DNA of 64,000 nt, from NCBI GenBank assembly GCA_963794475.1, contig CAWCDW010000009.1:25196-89195 (forward strand), read 5' to 3'. Each line of letters opens with the position of its first letter. Within the stretch, counting starts at the first letter, position 1. Made by a program: the position numbers and the translations under genes. Origin of the DNA: an uncultured Alphaproteobacteria bacterium (lineage in GTDB: Bacteria; Pseudomonadota; Alphaproteobacteria; Rhizobiales; Beijerinckiaceae). The notes beneath the pieces were generated by a model. The model did no database searches. It had not been told where the DNA came from and worked only from the letters and a program-made list of their open reading frames with translations. Shown here in pieces: positions 24,246 to 50,500 of this stretch.

Positions 24246-24478
24246 TTGGCCCTCTCCTCGTCGTTTTGCCTGTCGCGATGCCCTTGACGCACGCGGCAGC
24301 CGCGGGCGCACTCGCACGCCTCTGGCGCCACCATCGGGTTCATTCCATACTCTGACGCGGCCAAGACCAAACCCCGGGCGGGGCGCCGATGAGCTATGGC
24401 CCGGCCTGGGAGCTTTGGATCGCCTCCGACGTGCCTGCCGATCTTTCGCGCCTTGACGATCAACGTAAGGACATCCGG

Positions 24479-26383
24479 ATGGGCAAGACCCTTCAGACCG
24501 CCGGGATGCCCTCGGTCCGCGCCGCAAGGCAGCCCGCGCTTCTCGCGCTCGCCGCCCTCGGTGTCGTCTACGGCGATATCGGCACGAGCACCCTTTATGG
24601 GCTCAAGCAGGCCGTCGAAGCAGGCGGGACGCCGACGCCCGAGAGCGTGTTGGGCATCGTATCGGTGATTCTCTGGTCGCTTCTCCTCGTCGTCGGGCTC
24701 AAATACGCCATCTTGATCTTGCGCGCCGACAACCATGGCGAGGGCGGCATCGTCGCTTTGCTCGCCTTGCTCGATGTCAGGCGCGCGCCGAGCGGGAGCT
24801 GGCGGGCCTCGTTGCTCGTCGTTGGTCTGATCGGGGCGGCCCTGCTCTACGGCGACGGGGTGATCACGCCGGCGATCTCCGTGCTCAGCGCCGTCGAGGG
24901 TCTCAGGATCGACGCGCCCGGTCTCGCGCCCATCGTGGTTCCCATCACCGTCGCCATTTTGGTCGGCCTGTTCCTCGTGCAGCACAAGGGAACCGATTTC
25001 ATCGGCAATATCTTCGGGCCGGTCATGCTCGTATGGTTTGTCGCCATCGGCCTTCTCGGGCTCACCGGCATCATGCGGGCGCCCGGCATTCTGGCCGCGA
25101 TCAACCCTTACCACGCCGTCTTCTACCTGGTGCATGTGGGGCCTGGCATCGCTTTTGCCGTGCTCGGCGCTGCCTTCCTCGCGCTCACGGGGGCCGAGGC
25201 GATGTATGCGGATATGGGGCATTTCGGCCGCCTCCCCATCCAACTCGGCTGGTTTTCCGTCGTGCTGCCGGCCCTGATGCTCAACTATTTCGGGCAGGGA
25301 GGATTGCTGCTCGCGGATCCCAGCGCGGTCGAGAACCCGTTCTATTTGCTCGCACCCCGATGGGCCCACTACCCGATGGTCGCGTTCGCGACCATGGCGA
25401 CCGTGATCGCCTCGCAATCGATCATCTCGGGCGCCTACTCCCTCACCCAACAGGCGATGCAGCTCGGCTTCTTGCCCCGCATGCGGGTGCAGCACACGGC
25501 AAGCCACGAGAAGGGTCAGATCTACATACCCGTTGTGAATTGGCTCCTCGCCGCGGGCACGCTCGCTGCCGTGCTCACATTCGGCTCATCCGACGCGCTT
25601 GGCGGCGCTTATGGCATCGCCGTCTCGATGCTGATGGCGGTCACCACGATCCTCGCGGCCCTGGTCGCGCTGCAATGGGGCTACAACCCGGTCCTGGTCG
25701 CCTTGGTCAACGGATTCTTCCTCGCGATCGAGCTGATCTTCGTTGCCGCCAACATGACGAAGCTGGTCGAGGGCGGCTGGTTCCCGTTGCTCCTGGCGAG
25801 CGTCATTGCGTTCCTCATGCTGACCTGGCGAACCGGGTGGCTCTTGCTGGAGCGGGAACGCGCCAAGCTGCGCCAGCACGAGGCCGAGTTCGTGACCTGG
25901 GTGCTCGACAGTCCACCCATCAGGCTTCCCGGAGCGGCGGCGATCTTCACGGCCGCTAGCACGGGCATCCCGCTCGGCCTGACGCATCACCTGCGGCACA
26001 ATCGGGTCCTGCACGAGCGCGTGCTGCTCATCGCCTCCATCATCACCGACGAGCCGCGCGTGGCGCCCGAGCGGCGCATCAAGCTCGTGCCGGTCGGCGC
26101 CGGCATTACCCGGGTGTTGTTCCATTTCGGGTTCATGGAAACACCGGACGTGATGGCGGGGCTGAAGCTCGCCTGCCTCGAGCCCGAGCTCCACGGGATC
26201 GATCCGCAGAACATCACCTACTACTTCAGGCGCGTGATGGTGATCCCCGGCAAGGGCCGGGGGATGGCGACGTGGAGGAAATCATTATTCGCCACGATGC
26301 ATCTCAACGCCAATCTCCCAGCCGCCTATTTTGGCGTTCCGGCCGCCCAGGTCGTGGAGGTCGGTCTCGAGGTCGAGATCTAG
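24479..26383 (+). CDS. kup: KUP/HAK/KT potassium transporter
   Basis: GVVYGDIGTS, ADNHGEGG, GDGVITPAISVLSAVEG, GAEAMYADMGHFG, GQIYIPVVNW. Confidence 0.97.
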   Translation: MGKTLQTAGMPSVRAARQPALLALAALGVVYGDIGTSTLYGLKQAVEAGGTPTPESVLGIVSVILWSLLLVVGLKYAILILRADNHGEGGIVALLALLDVRRAPSGSWRASLLVVGLIGAALLYGDGVITPAISVLSAVEGLRIDAPGLAPIVVPITVAILVGLFLVQHKGTDFIGNIFGPVMLVWFVAIGLLGLTGIMRAPGILAAINPYHAVFYLVHVGPGIAFAVLGAAFLALTGAEAMYADMGHFGRLPIQLGWFSVVLPALMLNYFGQGGLLLADPSAVENPFYLLAPRWAHYPMVAFATMATVIASQSIISGAYSLTQQAMQLGFLPRMRVQHTASHEKGQIYIPVVNWLLAAGTLAAVLTFGSSDALGGAYGIAVSMLMAVTTILAALVALQWGYNPVLVALVNGFFLAIELIFVAANMTKLVEGGWFPLLLASVIAFLMLTWRTGWLLLERERAKLRQHEAEFVTWVLDSPPIRLPGAAAIFTAASTGIPLGLTHHLRHNRVLHERVLLIASIITDEPRVAPERRIKLVPVGAGITRVLFHFGFMETPDVMAGLKLACLEPELHGIDPQNITYYFRRVMVIPGKGRGMATWRKSLFATMHLNANLPAAYFGVPAAQVVEVGLEVEI

Positions 26384-26393
26384 AACGTGTCGA
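26333..26393 (+). repeat. 61-bp direct repeat (kup 3' end), copy 1
   Basis: Identical to 34472-34532 by manual comparison. Confidence 0.95.
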
Positions 26394-26416
26394 TTTCGGA
26401 TTTCGGTGACCGTGCG
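26394..26416 (+). repeat. Degenerate copy of the TTTCGGTGACAGTGCA motif
   Basis: TTTCGGA-TTTCGGTGACCGTGCG; core 26401-26416 has 2 mismatches to the 34554 copy. Confidence 0.7.
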
Positions 26417-26746
26417 TCTCGCGGCAACGAAGCCGCGAACAAAGCCCACATTTAAAAATCACCGCATCATCTGGTCGGGCGGAGCCACGCCCCGCATAAG
26501 AAGTCTTCCTCCGTGCACGGGTCTCGCAACAAGGAACCTGCGCGTCACCATGATGTTGATGGGCGGGCGCATTATGTGAGCGATGTGTTCGCCGGAACGC
26601 TCGTCGGCATCGCCGGCGGTTAGCCGCACGGAAAATCCAGGTGAGATCGCTGCCCGCCATGAGGTCATGGCGGCAGCCGCGCGCCGCCGCACGCGGCTTA
26701 TCGGAACCCGGCCGGGGGCTTTTCTCTTCCTCTGCTGCAACGATGG

Positions 26747-27706
26747 ATGAGGATCATGCCCAACAGACGAAAGCTCGCTCTCGCGCTCGCGGGCGGCAAT
26801 GCGCTTGGCGCCTTCGAGGCCGGCGCCCTGGCCGAGCTTAGTCGTGCGAGGCACGACGTCGAGGTTGTCGCCGGTACCTCGATCGGCGCGATCAACGCCG
26901 GGCTCTTCCTTGGCGCGCGCGATGGTGATCCCGAGCGAACGCTGATGCGTTTTTGGGAAGAGCTGGCACAGGACGTTTTCGCCTTTTCTCGCAACGAGCA
27001 GATCGCAGGGGCAAGCGTGAGCGCGCTGCTTTTCGGCCGGCCGACCGTTTCGCGCAGCCATATCGGATCGCTGCTCGCGCGCCTCGAGTCCATGGGCGCG
27101 CTTCAGGATCAGGCGCCACTAGCGCACACTCTCGAGCGGCTGATCGATTTCGACAGGTTCGCGCAAAGCAAAACTCGTTTAATCATCTGCGCGGTCGCGC
27201 TCGACCCGGACGAGCCGGTCGTCTTCGACAGCGCGTGCACGAAAATCGACGTTGCCCATTTGATGGCGAGCGCGGCGATGCCGGTGCTGTTTCCGCCCGT
27301 CTTCATCGGAACGCGTGCCTATGTCGATGGCGGGTTCGCACGCAATCTTCCGGTCGAGCCTGTCCTGGCGTCGACGAAACCGCCTTTTGACTGCATCGCT
27401 CTCGATCTCTTCGGGCTCGGAGGCAAAGTGCCGGCATCCCTTGGGGAGGCTGGCGAGCGGATCCAGAACCTCATCTTCGGCCTACAATCCGAGCGCATCT
27501 TACGCGACGCGCAGGTCCGGCGCGATTGCCGTGTCCTTCACGTCGTTTATCGTCCGCCGGAGCCCGAAAGCGTCGTCAAGGCCATCGAGTACTCGCGAGA
27601 ATCCATCCGGATGCGCTGGAAGGCCGGCGAGGAGGCCATGCGGCGCGCGCTGAGACTTTGCGAGCAGACGACCGCGGACAATCTCATTCGCGTTGAGCAC
27701 GTCTGA
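26747..27706 (+). CDS. Patatin-like phospholipase
   Basis: LAGGNALGAFEAG, GTSIG nucleophile elbow, YVDGG. Confidence 0.93.
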   Translation: MRIMPNRRKLALALAGGNALGAFEAGALAELSRARHDVEVVAGTSIGAINAGLFLGARDGDPERTLMRFWEELAQDVFAFSRNEQIAGASVSALLFGRPTVSRSHIGSLLARLESMGALQDQAPLAHTLERLIDFDRFAQSKTRLIICAVALDPDEPVVFDSACTKIDVAHLMASAAMPVLFPPVFIGTRAYVDGGFARNLPVEPVLASTKPPFDCIALDLFGLGGKVPASLGEAGERIQNLIFGLQSERILRDAQVRRDCRVLHVVYRPPEPESVVKAIEYSRESIRMRWKAGEEAMRRALRLCEQTTADNLIRVEHV

Positions 27707-27887
27707 CCGACCAGTCACCGGCGCCATCGCGATTTTAAGGCGCGCCCATTTTCTTGGAAGGACGGCAGAGCGCGTGACGGGCCGGAGATCGGCTTTGCGG
27801 AGTGGACTCTCCAGCTCAGCCGCGTCGACGATAGCGCGGCCGCCGCATCGCATGGTAAATTAAACCCTGATTACCAACGAACACTGG

Positions 27888-28808
27888 ATGTCGATGATCG
27901 ATTACCCGCGCGATCTGGTCGGCTACGCCGACAAGGCACCCAACCCGCGCTGGCCCGGGGGAGGGCGGATCGCGGTCAATTTCGTCCTCAACTACGAGGA
28001 AGGCGGCGAGCGCTCGGTGCTGCATGGCGACGCCTGCTCGGAGACGCGTCTCGCCGATCTTATTGCGGCACCCGTCCAAGGCGCGCGCGATCTCAATATC
28101 GAATCGGCGTATGAATATGGTAGCAGGGTCGGCTTCTGGCGTCTGATGCGCGTTTTTGCCGAACGGCAAGTGCCGCTGACGATCTACGCCGTAGGCATGG
28201 CCCTCGAGCGCAATCCGTATGCAGCCGAGGCAATGGCTCGCCAGGGCTGTGAGATCGTCGGCCATGGCTGGCGCTGGCTCGACTATCGAGGCATCGACGA
28301 GGCGACCGAGCGCGAGCACATCCGGCTCTCAGTGAAGTTGATCCGCAATCTCGTCGGCGTTCGCCCGGCCGGCTGGTACGTGGGTACGCCCAGTGCCAAC
28401 ACGCGGCGGCTCGTGGTCGAGGAAGGTGGGTTCCTCTATGACAGCGATGCCTACAATGACGATCTGCCTTACTGGACGTACCAGTATAGCCGACCGCATC
28501 TTATTATTCCGCACTCACTCGACGATAACGACACCCGTCTGGCGCGCGGTCTTGGCTGGGGACAGGCCGAGGATTTCTTCATCTCGCTGCGCGACAATTT
28601 CGATGCGCTCTACAGCGAGGGTGCGTCGGCACCCAAGCTGATGACCGTCGCGGTCCATTGCCGCCTCGCCGGCAAGCCGGCTCGCGCAGCCGCTTTCGCA
28701 CGGTTCATCGATCATGTCCTGGGACATGAGAAGGTCTGGATTTGCCGTCGCGACGCGATCGCCGAGCACTGGCGGCGGCTACACCCGGCGCGCGGAGCGC
28801 TTCCATGA
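27888..28808 (+). CDS. PuuE-like allantoinase / polysaccharide deacetylase (CE4) family
   Basis: WPGGGRIAVNFVLNYEEGGE, YEYGSRVGFWR, GHGWRW, YNDDLPYW. Confidence 0.88.
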   Translation: MSMIDYPRDLVGYADKAPNPRWPGGGRIAVNFVLNYEEGGERSVLHGDACSETRLADLIAAPVQGARDLNIESAYEYGSRVGFWRLMRVFAERQVPLTIYAVGMALERNPYAAEAMARQGCEIVGHGWRWLDYRGIDEATEREHIRLSVKLIRNLVGVRPAGWYVGTPSANTRRLVVEEGGFLYDSDAYNDDLPYWTYQYSRPHLIIPHSLDDNDTRLARGLGWGQAEDFFISLRDNFDALYSEGASAPKLMTVAVHCRLAGKPARAAAFARFIDHVLGHEKVWICRRDAIAEHWRRLHPARGALP

Positions 28809-30253
28809 CCAAGGCCGATATCGTCATTCGCAACGGCTGGGTCATCGATGGCACCGGCGCGGAGCGCTTCCGCGCCGATGTGGCGATCGCCGATGATCGA
28901 ATCCTCGCAGTCGGAGGGATCGATCATAACCCGCGGACTCGCGAGATCGATGCGGCCGGCCTGATCGTCGCGCCGGGGTTCATCGATGTGCACACCCATG
29001 ATGATCGTGCGCTGCTTTCAATGCCCAACATGACGCCAAAAGTGAGTCAGGGAGTTACCAGCCTCGTTGCCGGCAATTGCGGCGTCAGCCTCGCTCCGCT
29101 TGCACTCGCCGAGCTGCCCCCGCCGCCGCTCGACCTTCTTGGCAGCGAGACAGGCTGGTTCCGCTTTGCGCGTTTTGGCGCATATGTCGAAGCGCTCCGA
29201 GAGTCGCCGCCCGCCGTCAATTACGGCCTGCTTGTTGGCCATATCACCTTGCGTCATCGCGTTATGGATCGCTTCGACCGTGCCGCTCGCCCTTCCGAGA
29301 TCGCCGAGATGCAGCGTGAGGTGGATGCCGCGATGAGGGAAGGCGCGATCGGCTTCTCGACCGGGCTCGATTATCCCTCCGCGGTTGCGGCGCCCACCGA
29401 AGAAATCCTCCCTCTCGTCGCAGCCCTAAAGCCCCATGACGGGATCTATTGCTCGCATCACCGCAACTACTTTGACCGGCTCGAGGAGGCGATCGACGAG
29501 GCGCTGGCGATTGGGCGCGAGACGCAGGTTCCCCTCACCATCTCGCACCACCAGTGCACGGGCGCCGCGAATTTCGGCAAGGCGCCAAAAACGCTGGCGG
29601 TCATCGACAAGGCGCGGCAGAGCCAGGCGGTCGGGCTGGATGCCTATCCTTACAATGCGAGCTCGAAGACGCTCGACCCTGGCCGAGCGCAGCCTGGGGT
29701 CCGAATCATGGTCACGTGGTCGAAGCCCTACCCCGATCTTGCCGGCAGGATGCTCGACGAGATCGCCAATGAGTGGAGCTGCAGCCCGGGCACAGCGGCG
29801 GAGCGCCTGCTGCCCGCCGGAGCCATCTATTTCCAGCTCGACGAAGAGGACGTTCGTGCCATCCTCGCCTACGAGCACACCATGATCGGCTCCGACGGCC
29901 TGCCGCACGATGTTCACCCGCACCCGCGCCTTTGGGGCACCTTCCCGCGCGTTTTGGGTCATTACAGCCGCGACTGCGGGCTCTTCAGCCTCGAAGAGGC
30001 GGTGCGACGAATGACGAGCCTGCCGGCGCGCTGGTTCGGGTTCCGCGACCGCGGCGTTCTCCGACCGGGCGCCTTCGCCGACCTCGCCTTGTTCGATCCG
30101 GTGACCGTGAATGACAGGGGGAGCTTCACGGCTCCGGCACAGCCTGCGGAAGGCATCGCGCTGGTGATGGTGAACGGAAGCATCGTTTGGCAAGAGAACC
30201 GGCATACAGGAATGCGTCCTGGCCGGATGCTGCGCCGAGAGCCGGGGGCGTGA
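28805..30253 (+). CDS. N-acyl-D-amino-acid deacylase (D-aminoacylase)
   Basis: PGFIDVHTHDD, GNCG, GSDG, HPRLWGTFPRVLG; ATGA overlap with the upstream gene. Confidence 0.92.
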   Translation: MTKADIVIRNGWVIDGTGAERFRADVAIADDRILAVGGIDHNPRTREIDAAGLIVAPGFIDVHTHDDRALLSMPNMTPKVSQGVTSLVAGNCGVSLAPLALAELPPPPLDLLGSETGWFRFARFGAYVEALRESPPAVNYGLLVGHITLRHRVMDRFDRAARPSEIAEMQREVDAAMREGAIGFSTGLDYPSAVAAPTEEILPLVAALKPHDGIYCSHHRNYFDRLEEAIDEALAIGRETQVPLTISHHQCTGAANFGKAPKTLAVIDKARQSQAVGLDAYPYNASSKTLDPGRAQPGVRIMVTWSKPYPDLAGRMLDEIANEWSCSPGTAAERLLPAGAIYFQLDEEDVRAILAYEHTMIGSDGLPHDVHPHPRLWGTFPRVLGHYSRDCGLFSLEEAVRRMTSLPARWFGFRDRGVLRPGAFADLALFDPVTVNDRGSFTAPAQPAEGIALVMVNGSIVWQENRHTGMRPGRMLRREPGA

Positions 30254-31056
30254 GGCTTCCGCTCTATTTGGTCGACGCCTTTGCCGACAGAGCGTTTGCC
30301 GGCAACCCCGCCGCAATCTGCTTTCTGGAATTCTGGTTGCCCGAGGTGACCATGCAGTCGATCGCGGCCGAAATGAATCTTTCCGAGACCGCGTTCCTCG
30401 TGCCGACCCAGGAGGGTTGGCACATTCGATGGTTCACGCCAACCCTTGAGGTCGACCTCGTCGGGCACGCGACCCTTGCCGCTGCTTTCGTGATCTTCGA
30501 GCGGGTCGCGCGAGGCGTTGCCGAGATCCGCTTCACGAGCCTCAGCGGACCGCTCGTGGTCCGCCGCGACGGCGCTCTTTTGGCGATGGATCTTCCGGCA
30601 AGAGTGCCGGTGCCTTGCGTGCCACCGCCCGGGCTTGTCGATGGTCTCGGGGCCGCGCCTTTGGAGATGCTGGCGGCGCAGCATTATCTCGCGGTATTCG
30701 AGAACGAGGATGCGGTGCGCGCGCTCTCACCGCGCATGGATCGACTTGCAACATTGGATCGCGCGGCGGTGATCGTCACGGCGCCGGGCGGAAACTCCTA
30801 CTCGAGCGATTTTGTCTCGCGATTCTTTGCCCCGGCGAACGGCGTGCCCGAAGATCCGGTGTCGGGTGTCGCTCATTGTACGCTGATCCCTTATTGGTCG
30901 CGGCGGCTCGGCAAGAAGCGGCTTATTGCCCATCAGGTGTCGCGCCGCGGCGGCACTCTCGTCTGTGAGGATCGAGGCGACCGCGTCATCGTCAGCGGGC
31001 CGGCCGTGCTCGTACTCGAAGGCGCTTTCGTGCTGGAGGCTGCCTGGATGCCATAG
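30250..31056 (+). CDS. PhzF family isomerase/epimerase
   Basis: VDAFADRAFAGNPAA, MNLSETAF, EVDLVGHATL, EDPVSG; GTGA overlap. Confidence 0.92.
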   Translation: MRLPLYLVDAFADRAFAGNPAAICFLEFWLPEVTMQSIAAEMNLSETAFLVPTQEGWHIRWFTPTLEVDLVGHATLAAAFVIFERVARGVAEIRFTSLSGPLVVRRDGALLAMDLPARVPVPCVPPPGLVDGLGAAPLEMLAAQHYLAVFENEDAVRALSPRMDRLATLDRAAVIVTAPGGNSYSSDFVSRFFAPANGVPEDPVSGVAHCTLIPYWSRRLGKKRLIAHQVSRRGGTLVCEDRGDRVIVSGPAVLVLEGAFVLEAAWMP

Positions 31057-31310
31057 GTCGTCTTTCCCGCGGCCGGCGCGCTTCTTCGATAGAGCGGCGC
31101 CCGTCCTCATCTTCGCATCATTGTGTTTCTCGGCACCGGGCTCTCGAGCCGGGTCGATCTTCCAGCTGCCGAACATCATGGCAATTGTTGTGAGACGCGT
31201 GCTGGGTTACCCCAACATTACTTGCTTGCCCAAAATTACTCACAGATTATGCGGTAGCCTCTCTCCGCTACTGTTTCATCCATTCTGCGGGGCTTCCAAG
31301 GAGCTGTGCC

Positions 31311-31658
31311 GTGGCCATCGAGCGCCTGGAAAACGGGCCGAGATTTTGCAGAGTTCTCACGCATAACGGCATCGCCTATCTCGCCGGCATGACGGCCGAT
31401 GATCTCTCCGGCGATGTGGTGCATCAGACACAGGATACGCTCGCGAAGGTCGACCGCTATTTGCGCATGGCAGGAACCGACAAGTCGAAGCTCCTGACTG
31501 CCGTCATCTGGCTGAGAGACATCGCCGAGTTCGACAAGATGAACTCGGTTTGGGACAACTGGATCGACAGGGATGGCATGCCGGTCAGGGCGACCGTGGA
31601 GGCGCGGCTCGCGGGCGATCTCTACCGCGTCGAAATCATGGTCACGGCGGCGATCTGA
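31311..31658 (+). CDS. RidA/YjgF family protein (YoaB-like)
   Basis: AYLAG, QTQDTL, FDKMNSVWDNW, PVRATV (conserved Arg), VEIMVTAA. Confidence 0.92.
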   Translation: MAIERLENGPRFCRVLTHNGIAYLAGMTADDLSGDVVHQTQDTLAKVDRYLRMAGTDKSKLLTAVIWLRDIAEFDKMNSVWDNWIDRDGMPVRATVEARLAGDLYRVEIMVTAAI

Positions 31659-31761
31659 AAATCGGCCGGTCGAGCGCCTCGCCTTTCGCCGCTGCCGGCC
31701 GCGACGGGGGATGGGAGAACGAGCTTGATCCGAGCCGAACTGCAAACGAAGGGAGCCGAGA

Positions 31762-33456
31762 ATGAGCGCTGACACCGAGCATGTTCTTGTCGGCAAGCTG
31801 CGTGAGCAACTTGCGGAAGGAAAAATAGAGCGGCGCGAGTTCATGCGCTTCGCTGTCCTTCTCGGGCTTTCGGTTGGCGCGGCCGCCGCCACATCCGGCA
31901 CGCCGCCGGCTCGAGCCGAAGGCACCCTCCCTTTCGCAGATGATCCGAAGGCCAAGAAAGGCGGCACACTACGCGTTGGGCAGGCTGTCGCCAAAATGGA
32001 AGATCCGGCCACCTATAGCTGGAACGAGATGTCGAACCAGACGAGGCCCGTGCTCGAATACATGACGGTCGTCGGACCCGACAATCTGGTCCGCCCGATG
32101 CTCGTCGAATCTTGGGACGCCTCACCAGATCTCAAGCAATGGACGCTGCATGTGCGCAAGGGAGTGTTGTGGCACAACGGTGACGAGCTGACTGCGGATC
32201 ACTTGGCATTCAATCTCGTGCGCTGGACGGATTCGACGCTTGGATCGTCCAACAGCGGATTGTCGACCTTTGGCGCTCTGGCCGAGGACACCGGCGTCAA
32301 GAACGCCAAGGGCAAGCCGATGTTGCGGCCTCGCGCGGGCGCGGTCGAGGTCTTGGACCGCTACACCTTACGGCTCAATTTATCGAAGCCGGTGCTGAGC
32401 GTCGCCGAGGATTGTGCCGAGTATCCGACGGCCATCGTTCATCCTTCCTTCAAGCCGCCGCTTGCCGAGAATCCGATCGGCACGGGGCCTTTCACCCTTG
32501 CCGAGCTCAAGGTCGGCGATCGGTGCATCCTCAAGCGGGTGACCAAGACCCGCGACGGAAAGGATTTCAAATATTGGGGCGGCGACGTCTACCTCGATGA
32601 GATTCACTTCTACAATTTCGAGCACGAGAACCAGGTCACGGCGCTCGCCTCCAGCTCCGTCGATCTCATCTATGAGATCAGCGTCGAGGAATTGCAGCTC
32701 GCGCGGGCTATACCGGGCGGCCAGATCCTGTCGGTTCCTTCCGCGAACACGCTGTGCTGCCGCATGCAAGTCGACAAGAGGCCCTTCGACGACATCCGCG
32801 TGCGGCAGGCGATCGTCAAGGCAGCCGACAACGGCGCGATACTCGATCTCATTTTCCCCGACGGCGGCGCGGTCGCCGAGAACCATCACGTCGCCCCGAT
32901 CCATCCCGAATATGTCGAACTGCCCAAGCTCAAGCGCGATGTGGAGGGCGCGCGGAAGCTGCTCGCCGAAGCCGGGCACGGCTCGGGGCTCGACCTCACC
33001 ATCGATGTTGGCAACACCGACGGGCCCTGGCACCAGACTGTCTGTGAGGCGCTGCGCGATCAGCTCAAGGAGGTGGGAATCAATCTTGCTATCAACGTGC
33101 TGCCCACGCAGAAATTCTGGGAAATCTGGGATAAGACGGTCTTCGGGGCCACCTCATGGGGTCATCGGCCGCTCGGCACGATGGTGCTGTCTCAGGCGTA
33201 TCGCAGCGGCGTTCCGTGGAACGAGACGCATTTCTCCGATCCGCAATTCGACGCCGCCTTGGCGGAGGCCGAAGGCCTCATCGATGTTGCCAAGCGCAAG
33301 GAGAAGATGAAGGAGCTCGAGACCATCCTCCAGAACGCGGCCATAATGGTTCAGCCGATCTGGCGACCTGTCTACACCATGGCGTCGAAGAATGTGCGCG
33401 GTTATAGCGCCCAGCCGGCCCGCGTCATGCATTTGACCAAGGTCTGGATAGGCTGA
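31762..33456 (+). CDS. Family 5 ABC solute-binding protein with Tat-like signal
   Basis: RREFMRFA leader; [25 protein letters not shown]. Confidence 0.92.
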
Positions 33457-33464
33457 GGGCGGAT

Positions 33465-34412
33465 ATGAGCCGATATCTCACTCTCGCGGCTTGTCAGATG
33501 GGCCCTATCCAAAAGCGCACCTCGCGGAGGGAGACGGTCGGGCGTCTCGTCCACCTGCTCGAGAGCGCGGCCAAGGCCGGTGCGGATCTCGTCGTCTTTC
33601 CGGAAATGGCACTCACCACTTTCTTCCCCCGCTGGCTGATCGAGGATGAGATCGAGATCGAGACCTATTTCGAGGCATCCTTTCCGGGGCCCGATACCGA
33701 GCCTCTCTTCGCCGCCGCCCGCAAGCTGAAGCTCGGCTTCGCGCTCGGCTATTGCGAGAAGGCGGATGAGGGTGGGGAGAAGCGGCGCTTCAACACCATG
33801 GACCTCGTCAGCCGCGACGGCGAGGTCATTGGGCGCTATCGCAAGATCCATGTCCCGGGGACGCAGACCGTTGAGCCGGGCTTCACCACCCATCTCGAGC
33901 GGCGTTATTTCTTGCCCGGCAATCTTGGCTTCCCCGTCTTCCGTTATCGGGGCACGAATATCGGCCTCGCCATCTGCAACGATCGGCGCTGGCCGGAAAC
34001 CTATCGCATGTTAGCCCTGAACGGCGCCGACATCGTGCTGCTGGGCTACAACACGCCGCTCATCCTCGAGGAAGCTCCGCAAATGGCGCATCTGCGCATG
34101 TTTCACAATCATCTCCCGATGCAGGCGGGCGCCTATCAGAATGCCATATGGGTGGCGGCAGCCGCCAAAGCCGGGTTGGAGGACGGACAGTTCCTGATCG
34201 GCGGATCCTGCATCATCGCGCCGAGCGGGGAAATGGCCGCTCTCGCGCAATCGCTCGAGGACGAGATGATCGCGCATCGGGCCGATCTCGACTTCGCGCG
34301 CCTTTGCCGCAAGGCCAATTTCGATTTCGAGCGCTATCGGCGGCCCGACCAGTATCGGGCGATCGGCGAGCGCGAGGCCGCTTGTGCACCGCCTGCAAGA
34401 CCCAAACCTTGA
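33465..34412 (+). CDS. N-carbamoyl-D-amino-acid amidohydrolase (nitrilase superfamily)
   Basis: Triad motifs FPEMALTTFFPRW, YRKIH, ICNDRRWPE; MQAGAYQN. Confidence 0.9.
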   Translation: MSRYLTLAACQMGPIQKRTSRRETVGRLVHLLESAAKAGADLVVFPEMALTTFFPRWLIEDEIEIETYFEASFPGPDTEPLFAAARKLKLGFALGYCEKADEGGEKRRFNTMDLVSRDGEVIGRYRKIHVPGTQTVEPGFTTHLERRYFLPGNLGFPVFRYRGTNIGLAICNDRRWPETYRMLALNGADIVLLGYNTPLILEEAPQMAHLRMFHNHLPMQAGAYQNAIWVAAAAKAGLEDGQFLIGGSCIIAPSGEMAALAQSLEDEMIAHRADLDFARLCRKANFDFERYRRPDQYRAIGEREAACAPPARPKP

Positions 34413-34436
34413 ATCGCAGGCTCCGAGGAGGGTGAA

Positions 34437-34532
34437 CTCGGCTTCTTGCCCTGTACGCGGGTGCAGCACACGGCGTTCCGGCCGCCCAGGTCGTGGAGGT
34501 CGGTCTCGAGGTCGAGATCTAGAACGTGTCGA
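34437..34532 (+). pseudogene. Relic second kup copy: internal 38 bp fused to the last 61 bp
   Basis: 34437-34474 matches kup 25463-25500 at 35/38; 34472-34532 equals 26333-26393; junction shares GGC. Confidence 0.88.
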
Positions 34533-34553
34533 CGGCTGGCCGCGGGTCGGCGA

Positions 34554-34569
34554 TTTCGGTGACAGTGCA
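34554..34569 (+). repeat. 16-bp motif TTTCGGTGACAGTGCA (left inverted repeat)
   Basis: Exact reverse complement of 36456-36471. Confidence 0.9.
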
Positions 34570-34776
34570 TTCTTCGTCGTGACGAAGAAGGCTCGGCCCT
34601 CGCCGGTCGCGCCCAAACGTTCGGCGCCCGCGCTCGGCCTCAGCCAGTCATACCGACAGAACGAGCGCCATGATGGAGTTCGTGCTATACTTGCGATTAG
34701 GGCAACAGATAATAGAGCCTGAATAGGGCCATGGATAAGCGAGCCCGGAGAACCGCGTAAAAGCAAGGGTGTCGCG

Positions 34777-36369
34777 ATGGACCGCAGGACATTCCTGAAA
34801 GCGGTTACCGCCACGACCGCCGCGAGCCTCGCAACTCCCGCCATCTCGCAAGGCGCCGCGGCGCGCACGCTGCGCTTCGTGCCCCGGCAGGACCTGTCGA
34901 ATTTCGATCCCATCTGGACCACGGCCTATGTGGTGCGCAATGCCGGCGCGCTGGTCTACGACATGCTGTACGGTATCGATGACCAGCTGCGGCTGCAGCG
35001 CCAAATGGTTGAAGCCGAAGAGGTGTCGTCGGACGGGCTCACCTGGACCTTCCGTCTGCGGCCGGGCCTCAAATTCCATGACGGCGAGCCTGTGCTCGCG
35101 AGCGACGCGGTCGCCAGCATCAGACGCTGGTCGGCGCGCGATCCGACGGGCCACATGATCAAGGCCGTCGAGAATGAACTCGCGGCCATCGATGATCGCA
35201 ACTTCCGCTGGGTATTGCGCAAGCCCTTCTCGAAACTGAAGCTGGCGCTGGGCAAGAACGCAACGCCATGCTGCTTTATCATGCCGGCGCGGGTCGCCGC
35301 GACCGACCCGTTCCGTCAGATCACCGAGTATGTCGGCTCGGGGCCGATGCGCTTCGTGAGAAGCGAATGGGTGCCGGGGGCCCGAGCCGCGTTCGAGACA
35401 TTCGCTGGTTACGTGCCGCGGCCGGAGCCCGCCTCCTGGCTCGCCGGCGGCAAGCGGATGCTGATAGACCGCGCCGAATGGATCGTGATGCCTGACGCGG
35501 CCACGGCCTCGGCCGCGCTGCAGAACGGCGAGGTGGATTGGTGGGAGTCACCGACCAACGACCTGGTACCGCTCCTGCGGAAGAACCGTGGCGTCATGGT
35601 CGATATCGCCGATCAACTCGGCTTTATCGGCATGATCTCCCTGAACCACCTTTACCCGCCCTTCAACGATGTGCGGGCGCGCCGCGCCTTCCTCATGGCC
35701 GTGAACCAGGAAGACTATATGCTTGCCTATGTCGGGGACGACGCCGGGATGTGGAAGCCATTGCCCGGCTTCTTCACGCCTGGCACGCCGCTCTATAACG
35801 AAGAGGGCGGCGACATCCTGAAGGGCCCGCGCGACATCGACGCCGCGAGGCGGCTGCTGGCGGAGAGCGGCTATGCCGGGGAGCCCGTCACCTGCATGGC
35901 AGCGCAGGACTTCGCTCCCCACAAGGCTTTCGGCGACGTCACGGCGGACCTGCTCAGGCGGCTCGGCGTCAATCTCGATTTCGTCGCCGCCGATTGGGGG
36001 ACGGTGCTCGCCCGCAGGGCGCAGAAATCGCCGCCAGGCCAGGGCGGATGGCAGATGTTCCACACCACATTGTCCGGCACCGATTGCACCAGCCCGGCGA
36101 CCTACCCGCAGATTCGCGCCAATGGCGACGGCGCCTGGTTCGGGTGGCCGAACATCCCGCAAGTCGAAACCGAGGTCGCGGCCTGGTTCGAAGCAAAATC
36201 GCCCGATGAGGAGAAGGCCGCGGCGCGTCGCCTCAACAAGGCCGCGCTCGACAATGTGGTGTCGGTGCCGCTCGGCCTTTTTCTGCAGTACCAGGCCTGG
36301 CGGCAGAACGTGTCCGGGATCGTTCAGGGCCCGCTGCCCTTCTTCTGGGGAGTGAGCAAGGGCGTTTGA
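34777..36369 (+). CDS. Family 5 ABC solute-binding protein, Tat-exported
   Basis: MDRRTFLKA twin-arginine signal; DPIWTTAYVVRN, GSGPMRF, GEVDWWE, PPFNDVRARRA. Confidence 0.95.
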   Translation: MDRRTFLKAVTATTAASLATPAISQGAAARTLRFVPRQDLSNFDPIWTTAYVVRNAGALVYDMLYGIDDQLRLQRQMVEAEEVSSDGLTWTFRLRPGLKFHDGEPVLASDAVASIRRWSARDPTGHMIKAVENELAAIDDRNFRWVLRKPFSKLKLALGKNATPCCFIMPARVAATDPFRQITEYVGSGPMRFVRSEWVPGARAAFETFAGYVPRPEPASWLAGGKRMLIDRAEWIVMPDAATASAALQNGEVDWWESPTNDLVPLLRKNRGVMVDIADQLGFIGMISLNHLYPPFNDVRARRAFLMAVNQEDYMLAYVGDDAGMWKPLPGFFTPGTPLYNEEGGDILKGPRDIDAARRLLAESGYAGEPVTCMAAQDFAPHKAFGDVTADLLRRLGVNLDFVAADWGTVLARRAQKSPPGQGGWQMFHTTLSGTDCTSPATYPQIRANGDGAWFGWPNIPQVETEVAAWFEAKSPDEEKAAARRLNKAALDNVVSVPLGLFLQYQAWRQNVSGIVQGPLPFFWGVSKGV

Positions 36370-36455
36370 TGGCGCCCCCGCGGCGAAGAGAGATCGGCCC
36401 TTGCTTGTCGTGCCGAAACATTCGACGTCCACGCGAAGTTGTCGATTAGATTAGG

Positions 36456-36471
36456 TGCACTGTCACCGAAA
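36456..36471 (-). repeat. 16-bp motif TGCACTGTCACCGAAA (right inverted repeat)
   Basis: Exact reverse complement of 34554-34569; context ATTAGGTGCACTGTCACCGAAACTTCCGAAA. Confidence 0.9.
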
Positions 36472-36499
36472 CTTCCGAAACTAGCGGCTAGCGGCAAAT

Positions 36500-36746
36500 T
36501 TGACGGCGGCGCCTTCCTCCGCGTGGAAGAACGTTCAGCTCTCCCCCGTGCGTCGTTGGTCAAGAGCAGTTCCTTCAGTGTAGGCTTGGCCGCGTGGTTG
36601 AGTCGTTGCCAATCCGTCGCAGGTACCAGGATGGCAGCATCAGCACCGCGTTTGCTGGCGAGCTACGGGCCTTCCCTTAAGCAGCTTGCGAGCATCTCAC
36701 TGAAGCGCGCTTTTGCATCTTGAACCGGCCAGGCTCGCAGGGTCAT
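36500..36746 (-). pseudogene. Phd/YefM family antitoxin, disrupted by a nonsense codon
   Basis: Manual translation MTLRAWPVQDAKARFSEMLASCLREGP*LASKRGADAAILVP..WQRL..AKPTLKELLL; TAG at 36665-36663; 3' end approximate. Confidence 0.8.
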
Positions 36747-36909: not shown

Positions 36910-37000
36910 TGGCGGAGGGAGCGGGATTTCGAACCCGCGATACGGTTTCCCGTATACACACTTTCCAGGCGTGCGCCTTCAACCACTCGGCCACCCCTCC
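36910..37000 (-). tRNA. tRNA-Ser(GGA)
   Basis: GGAGGGGTGGCCGAGTGG..CACGC-CTGGAAA-GTGTG, long variable arm, GGTTCGAAATCCC, encoded CCA. Confidence 0.95.
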
Positions 37001-47526: not shown

Positions 47527-50500
47527 GCAATCTTGCTCCTTCAGGGTCGAGGAAGCAGGGAGGGCACACCTCGACGCGAATGTCGGTGCCGCGCAAGGCA
47601 TCGACCGCGCGCAGCCTCTCGCCCATGCGTTCGCGTCCGCGCTTCAGGAGGCCAAGGCCGATCGAGACGTTCAGCGACGGCGAGAAAGCGACCGAGGTCA
47701 TATGGCCCTCGTCGTTCTCCGGCGCTCACCGGCGCGTCGAGAGGCGATGAAATGCGCGCCCGCCGAAAGCCTGGCGCTCGGGTCGAGCGGCTTCACGCCG
47801 ACCAGCACTGGCCGATCGGGGTCGACGAAGCGCCGGGCGTTGCGACATCGCCCGGCCGATGAAATCCTTCCCCATCGCCATCAGGCGCGAGAAGCCGAGA
47901 TCTTGCGCGGTCGTCTGGCCGTTGAGCTCGCGACCCGGCCGCATGGCCCTTCTCGACGCGCATGACGTTCAAGCGCCTCGAGGCCGTAAGGCGCGACGCC
48001 AAGCGATTCGCCCGCTCGCATCAAGGCGCGGATGACCGCGTCGCCATGGCGGCACGGCACGCCGAGCTCATAGGCGAGCTCGCCCGAGAAGGAGATGCGG
48101 AAGAGGCGCGCGCGAAGCCCGCCGAGCACCGTCACCTCGCCGCACGCCATGTAGGGGAAGGCTGCGTTCGAGATGTCGTGCCCGCGATCGACGACCGCCT
48201 CGAGGAGCTCGCGCGACTTCGGGCCGGCGATCGCATATTGCGCCCATTGCTCGGTCACCGAGACGAAGCCGCACGTCGAGATCGGGCCAAAGCACCTGGT
48301 GGCAGAAATCGAGGTGCTGCATGACGGCGGCGGCATTCGCCGTGGTGGTGGTCATGAGGTAATGATCGGGGCCGAGGCGCGCCGTCGTGCCGTCGTCGAA
48401 GACGAAGCCGTCCTCGCGCAGCATGAGGCCGTAGCGGACCTTGCCGACCGGCAAGCGATTTCCACGAATTGCAATAGACGCGCTCGAGGAACTCGGCGGC
48501 ATCGGCGCCCTGGATGTCGATCTTGCCGAGCGTCGAGACGTCGCAAACGCCGACGCGCGAACGCACCGCGATGACTTCGCGGTTGCAGGCGTCGAACCAG
48601 CTCCGGTCGCCTTCCTGCGGGAAATATTGGGCGCGCAGCCACAGGCCCGATTCCACGAAGACGGCGCCTTGCTGCCTGCGCCCATTCATGGGAAGGCGTG
48701 AGCCGCGTCGGGCGGTGCTCCTTGCCGCGCGCATGGCCCGCGAGCGCGCCGATCGCCACCGGCGTGAAGGGCGGCCGGAAGGTCGTGACGCCCGTTTGCG
48801 GGATCGAGCGCTCGGTGATTTCCGCCATCACGGCGAGCCCGTTGACATTGGCGGTCTTGCCCTGGTCGGTCGCCATGCCGAGCGTGGTGTAGCGCTTCAG
48901 ATGCTCGACCGAGCGAAAGCCTTCGCGCTCGGCGAGCTCGACATCCTTGTCGGTGACGTCGTTCTGGAAATCGATGAAGGCCTTGCCTTTATGCCCGCGC
49001 ACGCGCCAGAGCGGCGTCACGGCGACGCTTTGCGGCTCGACTTGCGGCACGGTGGCCGGCCGCGTCTGGAAGCCCACCGCCTCGGCGGCCTCGGCGCCAG
49101 CCCGGGCGCCGGCCGCAAGGCAGTCGGCGAGATCGTAAGTGCCGCGCGCCGCCCCGGCGACCGCCATGCCGCGCGGCGTCGTCGCCGGGCACGAATCCCG
49201 CGATCGTCTCGTCCCACACGGGACGCCCGCCGAGATGCGTCGCCAGATGCAGATTCGGGCTGAAGCCGCCTGACATGGCGACGAGATCGCAGGCGACGCG
49301 GCTCGATCGGCCATCGAGCTCGCGGATCTCGACCGCGCGCACGGCGTGCCCGCCGATGGCGCCCGTGACGACGCCGCCCGCGACGAGGCGCGCGCCGGTC
49401 TTTTCGGCAAGCGCCGCGCTCGAAGGCTTGGTCTCGGGCCGGGGATCGACGAGCGCCGCGACCTCGACGCCCGCCGCGTGCAAGGTCGGCGATGACGCCT
49501 GCCGCATCGTCGTTGTTGGCGAAGACGACGGCGCGTCGGCCCGGCTTCGCGGCGAAGCGGTTGAGATAGGCTGCGCACGGCGCCGGCGAGCATCACGCCC
49601 GGCCGGTCGTTGTTGCCGAAGACGAGCGGGCGCTCGATGGCGCCGGCGGCGAGGACGCAACGCTTGGCGACGATGCGCCAGGCGCGCTGACGCGGCTCGA
49701 AGGGCGGCGGGGTGCGCGACGTGATCGTTGACGCGTTCGAGCGCCCCATAGGTGCCGTGATCATAGGCGCCGAACAAGGTGGTGCGGGTCATCACTCGCA
49801 CATCCGGGAAAGAGCGAAGCTCCGCCTCGATGCGCTTCACGAACTCGGGCGCCGCCTCGCCGCCGATGAGGCCGCGCTCCGAAAGCAGGCGCCCGCCGAG
49901 CCGGAAATCCTCTTCGCAAAGGATGACGCGCGCGCCCGAGCGCGCCGCGGAGAGCGCGGCCATCAAGTCCGGCCGGCGCCTGAGCCGATGACGAGCACGT
50001 CGCAAAACGCATGCGCTTTCTCGTAATGGTCGGGGTCGATCCCCTCCGGCGCGCGTCCAAGGCCTGCCGCGCGGCGGATCAGCGGCTCGTAAACTTTCTC
50101 CCAGAAGGAGGCGGGCCACATGAAGGTCTTGTAGTAGAAGCCCGCCGCGAGGATCGGCGAGAGGACGGAGCCGGCGGCCATCAGGTCGAAGGCGAGCGAC
50201 GGCCAGCGGTTCTGGCTTGCCGCCTCGAGACCCTCGAAGAGCTCGATCGAGGTCGCGCGCGTATTCGGCTCGCGCCTGGCGCCGGAGCGAAGCTCGACGA
50301 GGGCGCTGGGCTCTTCCGGCCCCGCCGACAAGATGCCGCGCGGCCGGTGATATTTGAAGGAGCGCCCGACGAGCTTCACCCCGTTGGCGACGAGCGCGGA
50401 AGCGAGCGTATCGCCCGGATGGCCGAAGAGCTTGCGGCCGTCGAAGCTGAAGGACAAGGAGCGCGCGCGGTCGATGAGACCGCCGCTCGCGAGCCGCGCC

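Follow-up and report, generated by a model that had tools for sequence, protein, structure and literature searches.

Two exact copies of a 16-bp motif face each other across the gene for an orphan solute-binding protein in a 64,000-nucleotide stretch of Beijerinckiaceae DNA (contig CAWCDW010000009.1; hereafter the window), and a third, near-exact copy lies upstream of them. Are these repeats the ends of a gene-carrying transposon, or did they come to flank the gene in another way? We find that the motif is the conserved outer core of a terminal-inverted-repeat family, similar to repetitive extragenic palindromic (REP) sequences, that is tied to a clade of small Y1 (HUH) transposases. The inverted pair itself is probably a remnant of resident repeats that was expanded in place, rather than the two ends of a transposon with a passenger. 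The features in question are the following, in window coordinates.

26394 to 26416, plus strand: repeat copy 1, the half-unit TTTCGGA and the core TTTCGGTGACCGTGCG; a single arm, truncated after GTGCG.
26417 to 26438, plus strand: 7-bp GC-rich hairpin after copy 1, unrelated to the hairpin at copy 2; its folding z score of -0.8 is not significant.
34546 to 34571, plus strand: repeat copy 2, the half-unit GGTCGGCGA and the core at 34554-34569; a single arm, its inner CTTAATT lost.
34570 to 34589, plus strand: hairpin abutting copy 2, TTCTTCGTC-GT-GACGAAGAA, of 8-9 bp; z = -2.0.
34777 to 36369, plus strand: gene for the orphan solute-binding protein, family 5, with a Tat (twin-arginine) signal, 530 aa (Pfam SBP_bac_5, NCBIfam).
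36433 to 36480, minus strand: repeat copy 3, the half-unit TTTCGGAAG, the exact core at 36456-36471 and the inner tail CCTAATCTAATCGACAAC.

The exact 16-mer, TTTCGGTGACAGTGCA, occurs at 34554-34569 on the plus strand and at 36456-36471 on the minus strand, and a search of the 5.25-Mb assembly returned these two copies only. A copy matching at 14 of 16 positions lies at 26401-26416 on the plus strand. The search confirms the three copies and the perfect inverted pair that a first-pass annotation of the window, made from the letters alone, had described. With up to three mismatches allowed, the window holds four matches against 0.20 expected, and none of 100 shuffles reached four. The fourth match, at 48248-48263 on the minus strand (TCTCGGTGACCGAGCA, 13 of 16 positions, three mismatches), lacks the flanking features of the family and is probably due to chance. 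The extra TTTCGGA unit that the outer copies had been said to share was likewise found, at 26394-26400, directly outside the 26401 copy, and, as TTTCGGAAG on the minus strand, at 36472-36480, outside the 36456 copy. The half-unit preceding the 34554 copy is weaker and degenerate.

The 16-bp motif forms the outer core of a longer repeat, of 25 nt, whose consensus is AATTNCGGTGACAGTGCACTTAATT. The genome contains about 50 hits to this family, mostly inward-facing pairs 60 to 190 bp apart, and they belong to two subtypes. Both have AATTNCGGTGACAG, which continues as ...GTGCACTTAATT in the GTGCAC type and as ...(T/C)TTAC(C/T)AATTCCCCATTT in the TTTAC type. In sister species, the doublets are hairpins of ~85 bp, each composed of two inverted arms, that are scattered in intergenic DNA in the manner of REPINs or MITEs; those of one sister species have 25 to 28 conserved nt per arm and a variable spacer of 32 to 36 nt, and they fold into 28-bp stems (z = -11.5 and -9.2). 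The arms are nearly all identical in a sister species that has the clade-B transposase described below. The genome under study has about 16 GTGCAC-type arms, one of them a perfect 25-mer and the others with 2 to 8 mismatches; these copies have decayed, as expected after loss of a transposase. At C3:856485-856518, two arm cores overlap at GTGCAC without a spacer (overlapped form GGTGAAAGTGCACTGTCACC), giving a near-perfect palindrome of 28 nt, TTGCGGTGAAAGTGCACTGTCACCGCAA. A full-text literature search with the motif sequence returned no relevant paper.

The link to transposases, which the first-pass annotation had named as one to Y1 enzymes of the REP-associated tyrosine transposase (RAYT) type, was borne out: the motif brackets a Y1_Tnp gene in inward orientation in sister species, in Bradyrhizobium and in many other taxa. 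The only intact Y1_Tnp (IS200-like) gene in the genome, at C10:713348-714055, has inward TTTAC-type arms on both sides. Eight other species of the genus yielded two transposase clades. Clade A, with TTTAC-type arms on either side, is 84 to 92% identical to the protein of this genome, and clade B 56 to 60% (about 59%). At every intact clade-B locus, TTACGGTGACAGTGCAC is found ~40 to 55 bp upstream of the gene and again overlapping its stop codon, with the arms facing inward. The downstream arm encodes the last codons and the stop of both transposase clades at L001:1153-1190 and L047:840-868, and the C terminus of the transposase in the present genome, ...KKRVTD followed by the stop, lies within the repeat.

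A wider scan, limited to one genome per species, gave 80 loci of the transposase clade in Bradyrhizobium, Rhizobium, Sphingomonas, Methylocystis, Acidobacteriaceae, and others; 79 had enough flanking sequence. An inverted repeat with GGTGA(C/T) was present on both sides of the gene at 37 of these 79, several others had the related GGGGACA, and Bradyrhizobium loci have AATTACGGTGACAGTGCA itself. The abundance of the motif also follows the presence of the gene across 41 related genomes, the association that had been proposed as a check: of the 12 genomes with at least three copies, 10 also have a transposase homologue, and genomes lacking the gene mostly have zero or one copy, the level of a reversed-pattern control. 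The exceptions are two genomes without the gene, which hold four (G002) and three (G032) copies.

Among five clade-B loci, two from the same genome, identity is 80 to 92%, and the homology spans exactly from the outer end of one repeat to the outer end of the other; their flanks are unrelated. Judged from these alignments, the unit of repeat, transposase gene, and inverted repeat (~765 bp) is mobile, at least historically, like an insertion sequence. Just outside the upstream arm, a partial tandem of the outer arm half (GAATTACG-GAATTACGG) was observed at L047:101-135, L048:89-126, and L058:99-156, and again in the upstream flanks of L069, L092, L103, L110, L128, and L140, across many taxa; in one genome, the full arm is present three times in tandem, with a 21-nt period. 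With TTAC at the foot, the outer half-unit may reflect the cut site of the enzyme, as a footprint or as a mimic of its target. One congener (G005) has a 4.4-kb segment (L144, G005:C41, 727-5147) in which an arm is followed by a 3' fragment of a clade-B transposase gene, three unknown open reading frames, luxR, luxI, and an inverted arm. The transposase unit is disrupted and has quorum-sensing genes in its interior. The retained transposase fragment points to an insertion into a resident unit.

In the genome under study, whose assembly is 97.6% complete, a clade-B gene was not found by tblastn, the hits being limited to the clade-A gene, at 59% identity, and a single short relic. Two probable relics were seen elsewhere in the genome: a GTGCAC-type arm followed by ATGGCTCGCCT at C2:730515-730620, which would derive from the 5' part of a clade-B gene, and a clade-A-like fragment of ~130 bp between two TTTAC-type arms at C10:627904-628115. 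Searches with both clades (tblastn, very permissive settings) detected no transposase fossil in or beside the arms of the window.

What, then, are the three copies in the window? No partner arm was found adjoining any of them, so they are not doublets. The right arm (copy 3) matches the full repeat at 21 of 25 positions, with 4 mismatches. The left arm (copy 2) keeps about 17 to 19 of 25 and has lost its inner third, and copies 1 and 2 are both truncated after GTGC(G/A). The inner tail of copy 3 looks like an arm and spacer as seen in the TTTCGG-type doublets of a sister species. All three copies carry the TTTCGG variant together with the outer half-unit, and outside the window this variant is present in the genome only at C2:416364, in a match with 2 mismatches. 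Because these traits are otherwise nearly absent from the genome, the three copies are taken to be locally related; they also represent three of the ~16 GTGCAC-type copies, all within 10 kb. Single arms, those of the window included, show no significant fold. The 9-bp hairpin that had been reported at 34570-34589 is present, although effectively it is a stem of 8 bp with a 4-nt loop and its z score is modest. A stem followed by a T run, as in a terminator, was not found at any of the three copies, and an Rfam scan of the window detected only tRNA, with no known RNA family matching the motif; an identity as structured RNA was rejected on this basis. The three copies have no structure of their own and are probably without a present function.

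Their surroundings are informative as to how they came to lie where they do. The copies are distributed over an interval that begins at the kup gene and ends at a gene for tRNA-Ser, with these additional features.

24389 to 26383, plus strand: kup, potassium transporter gene, intact, 664 aa (Pfam K_trans and K_trans_C).
26333 to 26393, plus strand: first copy of a 61-nt exact direct repeat, made up of 51 nt from the end of kup, stop codon included, and the 10 nt that follow.
26747 to 34412, plus strand: accessory module 1, with patatin, polysaccharide deacetylase, amidohydrolase, PhzF, RidA, SBP_bac_5, and CN-hydrolase genes (Pfam and called genes).
34437 to 34532, plus strand: kup relic, 38 nt resembling kup 25463-25500 (92%), a GGC microhomology joint, then the second copy of the 61-nt repeat.
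36488 to 36746, minus strand: phd/yefM-type antitoxin pseudogene, disrupted by an in-frame TAG and a frameshift and lacking its partner, vapC.
36910 to 37000, minus strand: tRNA-Ser(GGA).

The 61 nt at 26333-26393, which form the 3' end of kup, are repeated at 34472-34532 with 100% identity. Because this exact match is joined by a 92% match at 34437-34474, the second kup copy can be recognized as a relic with an internal deletion of ~832 bp. The exact repeat and the 92% stretch substantiate the earlier remark that the 26401 copy follows the kup end and the 34554 copy a kup relic. Copies 1 and 2 each stand 3' of a kup 3'-end copy and, on the alignment, are plainly duplicates made together with it. 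The step from 100% identity in the 61-nt part to 92% in the 38 nt next to it suggests that gene conversion or a crossover took place at this position. The 8.1-kb module at 26394-34532 is flanked by direct repeats, each consisting of the kup 3' end and an arm, and recombination between them would release the module as a circle. Congener homologues of module 1 were found for the patatin gene only (71 to 76%), there away from kup.

In every relative, the kup homology stops at the stop codon and different DNA follows in each. At the other end, one congener (L029) has an intact phd-vapC pair, whose homology to the window pseudogene ends at ~36500; the stop codon of the pseudogene is 7 nt from copy 3, exactly where this homology ends. 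It follows that vapC was replaced from the repeat leftwards. The interval from kup to tRNA-Ser comprises 10.5 kb, with congener homologues only for the patatin and binding-protein genes, both located elsewhere. It is a lineage-specific mosaic, and the window copies occupy its rearrangement junctions. A tRNA-linked genomic island was considered and rejected: an integrase is absent among the genes, the tRNA 3' end is not repeated, and the composition is flat. No stretch of the tRNA-Ser sequence longer than 16 nt recurs in the window, and a duplicate of its 3' end is absent there. Among eight congeners, the species all differ, with no synteny of the binding-protein gene, of module 1, or of the kup and tRNA flanks, and for this reason an orthologous empty site cannot be constructed.

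The binding-protein gene is the sole gene enclosed by the 1.9-kb inverted pair. Its product begins with MDRRTFLK, a twin-arginine motif, and the label "orphan" is fair since no permease or ATPase gene is adjacent; the description of a single Tat-exported orphan SBP_bac_5 protein inside the pair holds. Orthologues in three congeners (93%, 86%, and 84%) lie in three differing neighborhoods, and the motif was not found within 1.2 to 12 kb of them. The block common to the orthologues, ~34650-36380, stops short of both arms: its start is ~80 bp inward of the left one and its end ~75 bp inward of the right one. Synteny of the gene in repeat-free relatives had been named in advance as an observation that would speak against a transposon; the gene does occur there without the repeats, but it is not syntenic. 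The repeat-bounded 1.9-kb unit is single copy in the genome. Four conspecific metagenome contigs, retrieved by exact protein-sequence lookup, have an arrangement identical to that of the window. A metagenome scan with the kup end and the next 10 nt gave no matches, and one with the conserved kup end matched 28 contigs, 26 of them (from soil) with kup ends followed by DNA unrelated to the window and with no repeats. Neither an empty site nor a second insertion of the 1.9-kb unit was found among the conspecific contigs and in the metagenome scans.

How the family behaves in relatives bears on how far an inverted pair around a gene should be taken at face value. In a congener, the intergenic gaps around ordinary genes are routinely taken up, one after another, by doublets; at L146 (G008:C9, 382-6919), five of them extend over 6.5 kb in the gaps around ABC transporter, AsnC regulator, and DUF934 genes. 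Kilobase-scale arm pairs in relatives have all orientations, outward and direct as well as inward. In G006 and G008, where the system is active, single-gene inward pairs more than 200 bp apart with no intervening arm enclose only the transposase gene. In the genome under study, scans of open reading frames, with the lists inspected by eye and no domain search made, produced no candidate for a distant arm pair enclosing a classical insertion sequence.

Taken together, we favor, with reasonable though incomplete confidence, the explanation that the inverted pair is what is left of resident repeats expanded in place. The history would have started with one resident doublet between convergent kup and phd-vapC genes. 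Its interior would then have been expanded through insertion or illegitimate recombination, the binding-protein gene coming in and vapC going out; hairpin-forming repeats would be plausible break points. The left arm would subsequently have been duplicated with the kup 3' end on arrival of the 8.1-kb module. Several observations weigh against this explanation. The pair around the binding-protein gene shares a private exact 16-mer with the TTTCGG variant, and its arms face inward like those around a transposase gene. The outermost copies have the extra half-unit in common, and both outer boundaries are homology breaks, the geometry expected of a cargo element. The transposase unit behaves as a repeat-bounded mobile unit, which makes the mobilization of such a segment mechanistically conceivable, and there is a congener with the order repeat, transposase fragment, luxR/luxI, repeat. 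Lastly, no ancestral or empty allele was found, so that the in-place history is one that we infer.

The competing explanation that survives best, albeit as an unlikely one, is that of the first-pass annotation, in which the 1.9-kb segment, and perhaps also the ~10-kb one around it, derives from the transposase unit as a non-autonomous element with a passenger, moved in trans by a Y1 transposase and inserted 3' of kup. The mechanism is conceivable because the transposase unit sits at non-orthologous sites and is homologous precisely up to the ends of the repeats, and identical 16-nt cores facing inward, as around the transposase gene, are what it would produce. We nonetheless see no support for such cargo elements: the unit is single copy, its left arm is worn to a truncated remnant, and the cognate clade-B transposase is absent from the genome. 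Homology breaks at the kup and phd stops would suit the ends of an inserted segment, but all conspecific contigs are identically arranged, with no empty site, and the orthologues of the gene, which lack repeats, lose homology 75 to 80 bp inside the arms. The luxR/luxI genes between two such arms in a congener are the nearest parallel, yet that case retains a transposase fragment and so points to insertion into a resident unit, and the single-gene inward pairs of G006 and G008 enclose only the transposase gene. We would accordingly put little weight on the broader proposition, with the segment as a passenger-carrying Y1 derivative, that single-strand HUH transposases of this clade may be able to mobilize ordinary genes lying between two inverted arms.

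It is improbable, to about the same degree, that the pair is a dead transposase unit, the former clade-B locus of this genome, in which the transposase gene was replaced by the binding-protein gene. No transposase remnant was detected between or beside the arms by tblastn, and a better relic of a clade-B 5' end exists elsewhere, at C2:730515-730620. The half-unit of the right copy and its inner TAATCGACAAC do resemble the clade-B 5' flank in G006 (GAATTACG-GAATTACGG...TTAATTGACGAC), but beyond GAC the inner flank is nearer to the spacers of TTTCGG-type doublets than to a transposase 5' flank. That the genome is missing its clade-B gene, and that G005 shows a comparable partial replacement, is what such a history would leave behind.

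We give a similarly low rank to two or three doublets having inserted independently in neighboring gaps and each decayed to one arm, with their orientation and identity coincidental. Doublets do fill successive intergenic gaps in a congener, almost every arm of an active family is identical, and kilobase-scale pairs exist in every orientation. Coincidence would nevertheless have to explain why the TTTCGG variant and the half-unit are common to all three copies when the genome has a single other copy of the variant (C2:416364), and why three of ~16 copies fall inside 10 kb; copies 1 and 2, moreover, were plainly duplicated with the kup end. It is very unlikely that the motifs are operators of a regulator or transcription terminators unrelated to transposition, since, despite the near-perfect palindrome of the overlapped form at C3:856485-856518 and the position of the copies just 3' of stop codons, the motif systematically flanks a Y1 transposase across phyla and co-occurs with its gene, and single copies are unfolded and have neither a T run nor an Rfam match.

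If the inverted pair is explained as leftovers of resident repeats, the locus, eye-catching as it is, should not be annotated as a transposon. What the analysis documents is a subclass 2.1 Y1 transposase, of the kind called TIRYT (a tyrosine transposase associated with terminal inverted repeats), with REPIN-like hairpin doublets, a combination little described in Hyphomicrobiales. It comprises two transposase clades matched to their own repeat subtypes, a repeat-bounded unit at different sites in sister species, and one subtype that is decaying after loss of its transposase. The presence of repeats at the joints of a mosaic accessory region fits the idea that they are preferred places for rearrangement and gene insertion. 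Were the cargo proposal true, cargo-bearing units would help to build variable regions beside tRNA genes.

The system can be placed among known elements by comparison. With IS200/IS605 elements (IS608), it has in common a Y1 HUH transposase acting on single-stranded DNA, and the TTAC at the foot of the arm is also found at the left-end cleavage site of IS608. The ends of those elements are asymmetric subterminal hairpins on one strand, whereas the ends here are terminal inverted repeats, and their Y motif is Y---Q as opposed to Y---NP here. Mobile insertion cassettes, of which MIC231 from the Bacillus cereus group is an example, belong to the DDE elements; they have target-site duplications and either several copies or documented mobility. 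The binding-protein segment is similar in that two inverted ends of a kind recognized by a transposase surround a passenger gene with no transposase between them; it differs in being present in one copy, with one truncated end and with no target duplication, cognate transposase, or empty site.

The likeness to the REPIN-RAYT systems (Pseudomonas fluorescens SBW25, Bertels and Rainey 2011, PMC3116915), and to E. coli REP/BIME (bacterial interspersed mosaic element) sequences with TnpA-REP, lies in the inverted extragenic doublets that form long hairpins, in a transposase gene present in 1 to 2 copies and flanked by repeats, and in a repeat abundance that follows the gene, with decay of the repeats after its loss. 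Judged by the doublet form, the family belongs with REPINs and the three window copies, as single arms, do not. The GTAG 5' tag is absent, the outer foot here being AATTAC/GTAATT (TTAC/GTAA); a single arm is not palindromic; and the GTGCAC subtype has no cognate transposase in this genome. In addition, the transposase unit is located at non-orthologous sites in sister species and in this respect resembles an insertion sequence more closely than it does the RAYTs, which are inherited vertically.

The closest relatives are the TIRYTs. The proteins of the present system (236 and 228 aa) carry the motifs PNHVHL, GHLFQG/GHFWQG, RY(I/V)SLNP, and WRWSS; they score above the cutoff of Pfam Y1_Tnp and, at 69.1 and 76.6 bits, below the cutoff of 80 of NCBIfam REP_Tyr_transpos (NF047646). 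Y1 transposases of subclass 2.1 have NHVH, W(E/Q)/FQ, Y(I/V)xLNP, and SS motifs and a median length of ~238 aa (Quentin et al. 2018, PMC6006769); this TnpA-Y1 subclass is that of the TIRYTs and was mapped by Quentin et al. (PMC6006769) to RAYT group 1 of Bertels et al. 2017. TIRYTs have long terminal inverted repeats with a GGGGWSAS core, which are found singly, as dimers, and in groups (Di Nocera et al. 2013, PMC3733652). As assigned from their motifs, their length of ~230 aa, and their repeats, the transposases described here are of the TIRYT type, TnpA-Y1 subclass 2.1. As in TIRtrons, a Y1 HUH protein of ~230 to 240 aa is encoded by a gene that inverted repeats flank at fixed distances, and the repeats are likewise single, dimeric, and grouped, with a moderate copy number. 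The system differs in its core, GGTGACAG, which agrees with GGGGWSAS at 7 of 8 positions and is thus off by one; in an extra outer half-unit that recurs 5' of the gene; and in REPIN-like hairpin doublets, whereas Quentin et al. (PMC6006769) reported no REP-like sequences near subclass 2.1 genes. It differs further in that two subtypes reside together, each with its own transposase clade, and one of them is orphaned in this genome.

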